A stretch of 64,000 nt of DNA from Escherichia phage 236Ecol005PP: sequence record PP434423.1. One strand, given 5' to 3'. The position numbers were made by a program, and so were the translations under genes. Below, piece by piece: positions 26,535 to 29,375 of this stretch; the stretch's first letter is position 1, and each line of letters begins with the position of its first letter. The notes beneath the pieces are model-generated. The model worked only from the letters and a program-made list of their open reading frames with translations, was not told where the DNA came from and searched no databases.

Positions 26535-27116
26535 CTAACCGAGCTTTTTAGTTAATTCATTCCAATGTTTTCTACACAAAGAAACATAAATTTCATCACC
26601 AATACAGATTTGATTACCTTCTTTAACTGGTGTTCCATCTTCCATTAATCGAGCCGTCATAATAGCTTTTTTACCACAATGACAAACTGCTTTTAGTTCA
26701 ATAAGTTTATCTGCAATCGCTAAAAGTTCTTTAGAACCTTCAAATAATTTTCCAGCGAAATCAGTCCTTAGACCATAAGCCATAACAGGAACATTGTATG
26801 TATCGACAATTCGGCTTAATTGATGCACCTGTTCAGTTTTTAAAAACTGGGCTTCATCTACAAATACGCAATGAATATCTTTTTGTGCTTCAGCCCATTT
26901 ATAGAACTCGAAAATATCCATATCATCTGTAATAATATTCGCTTCCTGCTTAATTCCAATGCGAGAAACGACTTCACAGACAGAATCACGAGTATCAATA
27001 GCAGGCTTAAGAACTAATACACTCATTCCACGTTCTTTATAATTATGCGCAGCAGTCAAAAGAGAAGCAGATTTTCCAGCATTCATTGCTGCATAAGTAA
27101 AAATTAAACTCGCCAT
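26535..27116 (-). CDS. tk: Thymidine kinase
   Basis: 193 aa; P-loop AMNAGKS, Zn-ribbon CHCGKKA...C..H; matches T4 Tk. Confidence 0.9.
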   Translation of the reverse strand: MASLIFTYAAMNAGKSASLLTAAHNYKERGMSVLVLKPAIDTRDSVCEVVSRIGIKQEANIITDDMDIFEFYKWAEAQKDIHCVFVDEAQFLKTEQVHQLSRIVDTYNVPVMAYGLRTDFAGKLFEGSKELLAIADKLIELKAVCHCGKKAIMTARLMEDGTPVKEGNQICIGDEIYVSLCRKHWNELTKKLG

Positions 27117-27125
27117 ATCACCTTC

Positions 27126-27332
27126 TTAAAGCGTATTCACATAAGCTATTAATTCGTTTTCTTTCTTATCAAACCGGTCAGCAAATTCTTCTTGCTGTTC
27201 GGGAGATAGCGGGCCGTATTCATCATAAAAGGTGTTTGCTTCTGTATGCTCATCTAGAAGTTCATGGATAAGCTCAAACAATTTATCTTTTTGTTCTTTA
27301 CTCAGACTCATAACCATGTAACCTTTAAGCAA
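27126..27332 (-). CDS. small hypothetical acidic protein
   Basis: ORF track; 68 aa. Confidence 0.45.
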   Translation of the reverse strand: MLKGYMVMSLSKEQKDKLFELIHELLDEHTEANTFYDEYGPLSPEQQEEFADRFDKKENELIAYVNTL

Positions 27333-27520
27333 TATTCTTCTACATGTTGTTTACGACCTTTCTTATCAATAAAGGTATATTCAACGAATGTTCCAATGTA
27401 GTCTTTATCTACATCATGTGGACTATTAATTGGGCATTTAGTGCGGCAAATGCGTTCCCATTGACGAATAATTACTGCTTTGTTTTTAGGATCAAATGGA
27501 TGAGGGTAATGTACTTTCAT
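27308..27520 (-). CDS. small hypothetical protein
   Basis: ORF track; 70 aa. Confidence 0.45.
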   Translation of the reverse strand: MKVHYPHPFDPKNKAVIIRQWERICRTKCPINSPHDVDKDYIGTFVEYTFIDKKGRKQHVEEYCLKVTWL

Positions 27521-27971
27521 AATCCACCACTATTAAATCAATATCAGGAGTAAACATGTCGATTAATTTAGAAACCTTATCCCAATCACCGCCAGCAATA
27601 CCACAACCTATGCGTGGGATGTAAATTACTGGTTTAAACAAAAGGGTCTCTGCCTGTAGATTTAATTCTATCATGCAGTTTACTAAAGCACCATAATCAA
27701 GATTAGGACCTGGTTCGTATTGTGTATACAGATTATAGCATATACCAAATCCCGCAGGACTATGTTTAAAAACAATAGACATATCGCCTAATTTATCACG
27801 AGAACCATATTCAGTAGTGGTTTTATCTATTTCTAAAATTTTAGGATAGGCCCTTGCTAATTGACCCGCTACGCCTGAACCCATAGTATGAAAACAATTG
27901 CATCCATGCGCAATATTTTTACCTTCAGTGAAAAGGGCGACAATATCGCCCTTGATATATTTTACAATCAT
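27492..27971 (-). CDS. Macro-domain protein (ADP-ribose binding/processing fold)
   Basis: 159 aa; IKGDIV...NIAHGCNCFHTMGSGVAGQLARAYP and IGCGIAGGDWD match macro-domain nucleotide-binding loops. Confidence 0.6.
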   Translation of the reverse strand: MIVKYIKGDIVALFTEGKNIAHGCNCFHTMGSGVAGQLARAYPKILEIDKTTTEYGSRDKLGDMSIVFKHSPAGFGICYNLYTQYEPGPNLDYGALVNCMIELNLQAETLLFKPVIYIPRIGCGIAGGDWDKVSKLIDMFTPDIDLIVVDYESTLPSSI

Positions 27972-28309
27972 TTAGTACTCAATCCTCGATTATAAGAATC
28001 TACCAAACGGTCAACCATTGAATGACAAGCGGCTTTATCTTTCTCCTCCGCAACTGAACATTCTAAGGTATTCCACTTTTTAGCATATCGTTTTAATAAA
28101 GTATCGTTCTTGTATCTGCTTGATTTATCTCTTTCTCCGTCTTTATATGCATATATTAATTTCTGCGCAAATTCAGCTTGGCATGCTTTATTTTTCCCAC
28201 AGTAATCTGCCGCAGTGCGATTTACATATTCTCTAATTTCAGTATATGATGTATCTGCTAACGCAGAAAATGAAATTAATCCTATACATAAAACCAAAAT
28301 TTTAGTCAT
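27968..28309 (-). CDS. secreted/periplasmic Cys-containing protein
   Basis: 113 aa; N-terminal signal peptide MTKILVLCIGLISFSALA; four Cys. Confidence 0.5.
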   Translation of the reverse strand: MTKILVLCIGLISFSALADTSYTEIREYVNRTAADYCGKNKACQAEFAQKLIYAYKDGERDKSSRYKNDTLLKRYAKKWNTLECSVAEEKDKAACHSMVDRLVDSYNRGLSTK

Positions 28310-28847
28310 TTACTATTTCCAACAGTTTATTATTTTTAAGGTAGTTAGCCTTTTCTAGGACTTCAGAAGCATATTTAGAACCTGCTTTAACATTCCATCC
28401 CGAATTATAAGAGGATATTGCCTTTCTTATATCTCCCTTATGTATATTTAACCAATAAGAAAGTTCAATGTACGCCCAGGAAGCTGAATTGGACCGTTTA
28501 TTCAACATTCTTTTTATTTCGGCATCGGTCATATTATAACCAAGTTCCTTAACTCTTGCACGCATGGTCGGCAAATAGTTTTGGAACATTCCGTAGGCAT
28601 GATGCTTTGGTTTAGATTTTAAATTAACTCCGGCAGAGCTTTCTTGCCATAAAATAGCAGCCATTATATGACCTAATCCGCTCTTGTGGATATTTTTATG
28701 TGTTTTATATTTTCCATCCTTGGAAAATTGTTCCCCGAATTGATACGCGTAACGCATGTTATCGAGTTGGACATTACTGAAAGTATGCTCGGAGCTATGT
28801 GCCATCATTGAAATGGCCAATAGACCAGCGAGTAGTGCTTTTCTCAT
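28302..28847 (-). CDS. secreted lytic-transglycosylase-like protein (SLT-domain motifs)
   Basis: 181 aa; signal peptide MRKALLAGLLAISMMAHS; ILWQESS...YGMFQ...SSYNSG resembles SLT catalytic motifs. Confidence 0.5.
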   Translation of the reverse strand: MRKALLAGLLAISMMAHSSEHTFSNVQLDNMRYAYQFGEQFSKDGKYKTHKNIHKSGLGHIMAAILWQESSAGVNLKSKPKHHAYGMFQNYLPTMRARVKELGYNMTDAEIKRMLNKRSNSASWAYIELSYWLNIHKGDIRKAISSYNSGWNVKAGSKYASEVLEKANYLKNNKLLEIVND

Positions 28848-29316: not shown

Positions 29317-29375
29317 GTTATTCTCCTCTTAACTGATAGAAAAATTATACTACAGTCAAGAGGAAAAGTAAACAG

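Follow-up and report, generated by a model that had tools for sequence, protein, structure and literature searches.

A mosaic allele of the T4 macrodomain gene tk.4 (adfM) in Escherichia phage 236Ecol005PP, a candidate glutamine-type anti-DarTG2 enzyme

Introduction

The closest described relative of the gene studied here is tk.4 of phage T4, whose reference record reads 'phosphatase; Tk.4; contains A1pp phosphatase motif', so that the domain call has long been on record. In a November 2025 preprint, a transposon-insertion screen of T4 on DarTG2-expressing E. coli gave tk.4 as its single significant hit, a clean tk.4 knockout was sensitised to DarTG2, and the gene was dispensable on plain E. 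coli K-12 and important only with DarTG2 (bioRxiv 10.1101/2025.11.20.689424). In that preprint the DarTG2 experiments were run at 30°C in minimal medium, the gene is renamed adfM (anti-DarT factor Macrodomain), structural similarity to the Mtb DarG macrodomain is noted, and enzymatic removal of ADP-ribose from DNA only 'seems likely' to the authors. In cells infected with T2, proteomics detects the Tk.4 protein, and RIL-seq shows pairing between the tk.4 transcript and the host sRNA ArcZ (10.64898/2026.06.19.733364). That study calls tk.4 a 'putative thymidine kinase', a mislabel that comes from the gene name.

The name AdfM was given independently, in a 2026 Cell Reports paper, to gp104 of phage PhiKZ, which removes DarT2-made ADP-ribose from DNA in vitro, protects the phage and is inactive once its catalytic Asn is mutated (PMC13309987). 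SCO6735 of Streptomyces coelicolor removes ADP-ribose in vitro from DNA thymidine, not from guanosine, and rescues cells from DarT; it has Gln85 at the position of the catalytic Lys, a feature shared by BT1257 (PMC9411070). Asn27 locks Gln85 in place, the Q85A mutant is inactive and N27S nearly so, and a water-mediated, backbone-assisted hydrolysis has been proposed, while a mobile loop with Lys89 and Lys94 is thought to aid DNA binding (PMC9411070). The substrates of the ALC1-like macrodomains characterised so far are Glu/Asp esters and thymidine-linked DNA adducts (PMC9411070).

Another relative, the macro protein Adpp, occurs in 15% of NARP1 (Adps + Namat) operons according to a January 2026 preprint (10.64898/2026.01.28.702374). 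Adpp removes the phosphate from ADPR-1''-phosphate, which the aRES defence produces, so that NARP1 can then rebuild NAD+; the Adpp of Vibrio phage Gary is active in vitro, and Adps, Adpp and Namat are all required in vivo (10.64898/2026.01.28.702374). Adpp and yeast Poa1p are both ADPR-1''-phosphate phosphatases, and the Adpp gene is embedded between those for Adps and Namat.

Results

Gene order around the macro-domain gene

In the window, by which we mean the whole 64,000-nucleotide stretch that was analysed, the ORF list contains an intact macro-domain gene of 159 codons running from ATG to stop. The translation holds both GDIV...NIAHGCNCFHTMGSGVAGQLARAYP and IGCGIAGGDWD, the two motifs quoted by the first-pass annotation for a 159-aa macro product, and the ORF is real. 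Two small ORFs intervene between tk and the macro gene, so that the earlier placement next to tk is right only approximately; the description 'stand-alone' holds for the protein, which has a single domain, and the gene itself sits in a tightly packed co-directional string with the following features.

26535..27116, same strand as the regB-to-tk string: tk (PF00265)
27126..27332: DUF7438 ORF, between tk and the macro gene (ORF and Pfam)
27308..27520: DUF7202 ORF, equal to T4 tk.3, between tk and the macro gene (ORF and Pfam)
27492..27971, minus strand: macro-domain gene, orthologue of T4 tk.4 (adfM), 159 aa
27492..27520, minus strand: 29-nt overlap of the macro-gene 3' end with the tk.3 start (ORF coordinates against the T4 annotation)
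27968..27971, minus strand: ATGA in which the stop codon of vs overlaps the start codon of the macro gene, a junction of the translational-coupling type (coordinates and sequence)

The order tk, DUF7438 ORF, DUF7202 ORF, macro gene, vs, a gene with an SLT domain and regB (PF10715) matches that of the T4 annotation (tk, tk.1/tk.2, tk.3, tk.4, vs, vs.1, regB). The ATGA junction between vs and the macro gene is arranged likewise in T4, whereas the overlap with tk.3 is 4 nt in T4 and 29 nt in the window. The 3-kb stretch around the gene is 97–98.5% identical to many Escherichia, Shigella and Yersinia T4-type phages (Tequatrovirus). Two plus-strand ORFs that overlap the macro gene (27344..27553 and 27888..27995) are short and unsupported beyond being ORFs, and were set aside.

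The neighbouring vs (27968..28309) is without a Pfam match and vs.1 (28302..28847) encodes an SLT lytic-transglycosylase domain; both products start with hydrophobic, signal-peptide-like N-termini, and in the HIDEN-SEQ preprint vs is the most depleted T4 gene in minimal medium. Promoter and terminator scans of the region gave counts at or below the shuffled expectation, which says nothing on expression. The best sigma-70-like match of the region (29344-29372, minus strand; TTTACT-17-TATAAT, 10/12) is located a short way upstream of regB and shares the strand of the entire regB-to-tk string, with overall counts not above the shuffled expectation, and a simple scan between regB and tk found no minus-strand terminator-like site.

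The product has a macro fold

The first-pass call of a macro domain is correct on the evidence of profile search, structure prediction and fold comparison. The product matches Pfam Macro (PF01661) at 32.2 bits, above the curated gathering cut-off of 22 (E = 1.1e-7), over residues 22–136 and profile positions 2–117 of 118, and PHROG 335 at E = 3.5e-71; the macro-domain match is well beyond chance. Structure prediction, the check that the annotation had proposed, confidently gave a three-layer alpha/beta/alpha macro fold, with human TARG1/OARD1 as the best Foldseek match (E = 3e-9, TM 0.71–0.81). The conserved Asn and the glycine-rich ADP-ribose/phosphate loops are present as well, with N25, G31, G33, G122 and G124 invariant or nearly so and aligned with their equivalents in TARG1, DarG, SCO6735 and BT1257. 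Neither of the two outcomes named beforehand as speaking against the call, an absent macro fold or absent binding residues, occurs. A homologue is present in 2771 of the 50,697 phage genome records searched, and a search at E<=1e-5 gave 772 matching protein clusters.

The gene is an orthologue of T4 tk.4

We compared the protein with T4 Tk.4 (AdfM; NP_049723) and found 59% identity over 155 aa without a gap, so that 41% of the positions differ. The locus lies between tk.3 and vs in both T4-type genomes, the HGCNCFHTMGSG and NLYTQ motifs are identical, the loop after the Gln is short in both, and neither has NARP1 neighbours; the lengths are 159 and 155 aa, the window protein carrying four extra C-terminal residues. 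Full-length homology, the shared subgroup signature (NLYTQ followed by a short [YF]xPGPN loop) and the conserved position between tk.3 and vs place the protein in the T4 Tk.4/AdfM group. The gene is thus an orthologue of T4 tk.4/adfM, already known in kind and function.

A predicted glutamine-type active site

Across 62 aligned sequences, fifteen residues never vary (H22, G23, N25, C26, G33, A35, G62, N80, Y82, Q84, G88, P119, G122, G124 and W130), and this still holds once T4 Tk.4 is added. The loops and the motif that hold most of these residues are given below.

27873..27908, minus strand: codons 22–33, substrate-binding loop HGCNCFHTMGSG (H22, G23, N25, C26 and G33 invariant in 62 members)
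27720..27734, minus strand: codons 80–84, NLYTQ (N80, Y82 and Q84 invariant)
27582..27617, minus strand: codons 119–130, phosphate-binding glycine loop PRIGCGIAGGDW (P119, G122, G124 and W130 invariant)

N25 is aligned with SCO6735 N27, with the conserved Asn of DarG and with N23 of PhiKZ AdfM (PMC9411070, PMC13309987), and H22 with Poa1p H23. The PRIGCGIAGGDW loop aligns with PRIGCGLAGG(K/T)W of BT1257/SCO6735 and with PRIGCGLDRLQW of TARG1. In the HMMER profile alignment (TARG1, BT1257) and the MAFFT alignment (DarG, TARG1, PhiKZ gp104), Q84 falls where TARG1 (K84) and DarG (K80) have their catalytic Lys, and A126 stands in the TARG1 D125 column (HMMER profile alignment). Compared with human TARG1/OARD1, to which the protein is 20–23% identical, the K84/D125 dyad is therefore replaced by Q84/A126, which makes the lysine chemistry of DarG and TARG1 impossible for this family and removes a TARG1-like Lys/Asp mechanism from consideration.

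The arrangement that defines the SCO6735/BT1257 subclass, a Gln in place of the Lys positioned by an Asn, is found here: Q84 and N25 are invariant, and the BT1257 Gln aligns with Q84. Since N25 and Q84 align with the SCO6735 N27/Q85 pair, we infer a Gln-type hydrolysis of thymidine-linked ADP-ribose. The likeness to the subclass has its limits, with 26–28% identity, HxCNC in the window protein against HxCND, and a phage-borne gene. The SCO6735/BT1257 mobile loop, about five residues longer than that of DarG/TARG1 and holding Lys89/Lys94, is absent from the window protein, whose loop after the catalytic position, QYEPGPNLDY, is as long as that of TARG1. The mobile loop exceeds the phage loop by six residues in BT1257 on HMMER profile alignment and by five on the authors' structural alignment (PMC9411070); we relied on these two because global MAFFT mis-threaded the longer loop of SCO6735/BT1257.

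The protein lies outside the DarG family proper

PhiKZ gp104, whose sequence we translated from the construct in PMC13309987, is a genuine DarG-type protein: it matches Mtb DarG at E = 9e-25, has the FPTK lysine and scores 133 bits with the PADLOC DarG model. The same model gives 36 bits for T4 Tk.4 and 28 bits for the window protein, which matches only positions 2–144 of the 329 in the model, is related to Mtb DarG at E = 1.3e-5 (phmmer) and aligns with gp104 in two short patches only. In place of the catalytic lysine (DarG K80, FPTK) it has YTQ with the invariant Q84, it ends without a C-terminal DarT-binding domain, and its gene is flanked by vs and tk.3 rather than by darT. Because the catalytic Lys and the DarT-binding domain are missing and the score with the DarG model is weak, we place it outside the DarG family proper. 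Judged by these comparisons of sequence, the name AdfM is shared by two macrodomain subfamilies that are not orthologous and differ in their catalytic residues.

Loop signature and gene context separate the T4-type proteins from Adpp

A second CHARACTERISED relative is Gary Adpp (KNV71_gp137), with an identity of 39% to the window protein (E = 9e-27) and of 35% to T4 Tk.4. The motifs HxCNCF, NxYxQ and IGCGxAGGDWD are common to Adpp and the window protein, but Adpp has a seven-residue insertion directly after the Gln. The macro copy of Vibrio phage P018-4 lies between genes annotated 'ribose-phosphate pyrophosphokinase' and 'nicotinamide phosphoribosyltransferase', an order accounted for by the NARP1 preprint (10.64898/2026.01.28.702374). 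We scored 82 phage loci from IMG/VR for the post-Gln loop and for Adps/Namat homologues within 5 kb. All T4-like loci readable at the motif, the window included, have NLYTQ followed by [YF]x(P/A/S)G... and a short loop. Adps and Namat are absent within 5 kb at every T4-like locus in this survey; the search of the whole 64-kb window found no homologue of either (best E 0.37 and 0.58). Both NARP1 genes are present only in the Adpp group, together with NVYGQ and the insertion.

L002, 3169-6081: Vibrio NARP1-AP locus, macro gene between Adps and Namat
L003, 1626-4656: Vibrio NARP1-AP locus, macro gene between Adps and Namat
L083-L085: Vibrio NARP1-AP loci, macro gene between Adps and Namat

The loop signature separated the NARP1-linked from the T4-type copies in all 82 loci examined, NVYGQ with seven extra residues being a correlation drawn from five NARP1-linked loci and not a published definition. 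It is missing from both the window protein and T4 Tk.4. Having the short loop and no NARP1 genes, the window protein belongs with T4 Tk.4 and not with Adpp, and an Adpp/NARP1-AP assignment of its gene was rejected on gene context and loop signature. The Poa1p residues represented by the H23A, S30A and F152A mutants in the PDB were also tried as a phosphatase test and gave no discriminating rule, the proven Adpp having Arg at S30.

In four metagenomic phage loci a Namat/NAMPT-like gene lies near a macro homologue without Adps (L053 2806-4167; L059 1251-2573; L061 3985-5307; L070 7263-8066). These genes match Gary Namat at E values of 1e-14 to 5e-41 with 23–26% identity, and the post-Gln loop of the macro proteins is intermediate in L059, L061 and L070 and short in L053. 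The arrangement may represent a different NAD-salvage linkage.

The window carries a divergent mosaic allele

Alignment to T4 revealed a sharp boundary within the macro gene, beyond which one segment stands out.

About 27492..27840, minus strand: divergent allele segment, approximately codons 45–159 (MAFFT against T4, 60-nt blocks)

The 5' part of about 130 nt is about 95% or more identical to T4, the other approximately 350 nt only 47–67%, and the flanks of the divergent segment 93–100% (MAFFT, 60-nt blocks). The drop in identity spans about 27490 to 27840, and on either side the values are again 95% or more. At the protein level, identity to T4 Tk.4 falls from 43/47 over the first residues to 49/108 over the rest. 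Since synonymous sites in the 5' part are near-identical too, the gene is a recombination mosaic and not the result of uniform divergence. Alleles at least 90% identical to that of the window occur in about 290 phage records, making it a common allele. Its phosphate loop reads GIAGG, as in at least 90% of family members, and that of T4 reads GIGKG. At this loop the atypical allele is the experimentally tested one of T4 (L001 5923-6390).

Among otherwise near-identical T4-type genomes, tk.4 looks like a hot spot of allele swapping or recombination. A second divergence island lies at 27125-27303, where a single 68-aa DUF7438 ORF (27126..27332, PHROG 653) replaces T4 tk.1 and tk.2; over 27125-27332 the alignment with T4 has a gap of approximately 170 nt and 55–70% identity, with flanks 93–100% identical.

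Discussion

The ORF, fold, conserved residues, orthology and synteny are established for the window gene. Taken together with the work on T4, our analysis suggests that this divergent mosaic allele probably encodes an anti-DarTG2 counter-defence enzyme whose main role is the enzymatic reversal of DarT2 ADP-ribosylation. That the window allele has the same activity and role as T4 tk.4, and that the T4-type proteins act enzymatically and not by binding DarT2, we infer from orthology and from the active site. The host toxin DarT2 would move ADP-ribose from NAD+ to thymidines within the TNTC motifs of phage DNA in its single-stranded form, a modification that would block replication. The cleft of the phage macrodomain, formed by the HGCNCFHTMGSG and PRIGCGIAGGDW loops, is predicted to bind the ADP-ribose moiety and to hydrolyse the ribose-thymine N-glycosidic bond, giving free ADP-ribose and unmodified DNA. 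The active site would be of the glutamine type, not the lysine type of DarG/TARG1, with Q84, positioned by N25, orienting the distal ribose for a hydrolysis mediated by water, in the way suggested for SCO6735.

The first-pass annotation had offered reversal of a host DarTG mark and tuning of the phage's own ADP-ribosylation as alternatives and had left the choice open. Reversal is supported by the T4 screen and knockout (bioRxiv 10.1101/2025.11.20.689424); leaving the choice open is out of date for T4 itself, and reversal is the likelier reading for the window allele, whose product is only 59% identical to the tested T4 protein. The DarTG2 phenotype comes from the T4 allele only. Against the preferred reading stand a 39%-identical relative, Adpp, with another demonstrated activity as an ADPR-1''-P phosphatase, the inclusion of the phosphate loop in the 41% difference from the tested T4 protein, the distance from true DarG, and the absence both of DarG's catalytic Lys and of the Lys-bearing mobile loop of SCO6735. 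The T4 evidence, moreover, is a preprint whose experiments used 30°C and minimal medium.

The alternative that survives best, although we consider it unlikely, is that the protein is mainly an ADPR-1''-phosphate phosphatase of the Adpp/Poa1p kind, in line with the historical label 'A1pp phosphatase', with a substrate arising from RES-type NADases (aRES) or from RNA 2'-phosphotransferase chemistry. The window protein and T4 Tk.4 lack the NVYGQ motif with its insertion, the window is without an Adps or Namat homologue and the T4-like loci surveyed have none within 5 kb, and deleting any gene of the Adps-Adpp-Namat operon abolishes anti-aRES activity (10.64898/2026.01.28.702374). The sole T4 phenotype so far is with DarTG2 (bioRxiv 10.1101/2025.11.20.689424). 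The two activities are not mutually exclusive, and a phosphatase side activity may exist; as judged from the gene content, it would bring no obvious benefit without NARP1.

Somewhat less likely again is protection mainly through binding and inhibition of DarT2, that is, antitoxin mimicry in place of adduct hydrolysis. The dead mutants SCO6735 Q85A, DarG K80A and TARG1 K84A inhibit DarT in vitro, SCO6735 most (PMC9411070), and the T4 data are purely genetic and fit both modes (bioRxiv 10.1101/2025.11.20.689424). However, the protein is a single macrodomain of 159 aa without the C-terminal DarT-binding domain of DarG, the catalytic-Asn mutant of PhiKZ AdfM is inactive (PMC13309987), and the invariance of H22, N25, Q84, G122 and G124 across very diverse phages argues for selection on catalysis.

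Action on ADP-ribose conjugates or signals of another kind, such as ADP-ribosylated RNA or immune signals of the cyclic-ADPR type, is improbable. From comparative genomics it has been argued that soluble ADPr derivatives are the targets of most phage macro domains (PMC9503650), and the members in L053, L059, L061 and L070 lie beside a Namat/NAMPT-like gene without Adps; against this, tk.4 was the single significant hit with DarTG2, and the other screens in the accessible part of the preprint implicate other genes (bioRxiv 10.1101/2025.11.20.689424).

T4-type phages encode Alt, ModA and ModB, which make arginine-linked ADP-ribose. The least likely option is that the macro protein removes or tunes these marks, the first alternative of the first-pass annotation, which is disfavoured: the gene does lie in an early/middle-type cluster beside the host-takeover genes vs and regB, but no alt, modA or modB gene adjoins it, the arginine linkage differs from the Glu/Asp esters and thymidine adducts on which characterised ALC1-like macrodomains act (PMC9411070), and tk.4 is dispensable on plain E. 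coli K-12 and matters only with DarTG2 (bioRxiv 10.1101/2025.11.20.689424).

Returning to the reversal of thymidine ADP-ribosylation, a bolder form of it, which is speculative and to which we attach a low probability, would make T4-type Tk.4 a mechanistically distinct third solution: of the Gln type, without the DNA-binding mobile loop of SCO6735, and unrelated at the subfamily level to DarG and PhiKZ AdfM, with the allele swap as an arms-race exchange of the catalytic two-thirds that changes specificity. If this were true, the swapped segment could be suited to other variants of DarT2, or the protein could serve both as a dT-ADPr glycohydrolase and as an ADPR-1''-P phosphatase.

The window itself adds only another allele of a gene found in hundreds of sequenced phages, and the double naming of AdfM, the split of the family and the tk.4 hot spot are possibly of modest specialist use. 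An anti-DarTG2 factor and a NARP1-associated ADPR-1''-P phosphatase belong to the same homologous family, in which loop insertion and gene context tell them apart, and pipelines that label all such proteins 'phosphatase' probably misname the T4-type subgroup. In summary, T4-type phages have an orphan antitoxin-like enzyme for each DarTG type: AdfN (NADAR) against DarTG1 and Tk.4/AdfM (macrodomain) against DarTG2.
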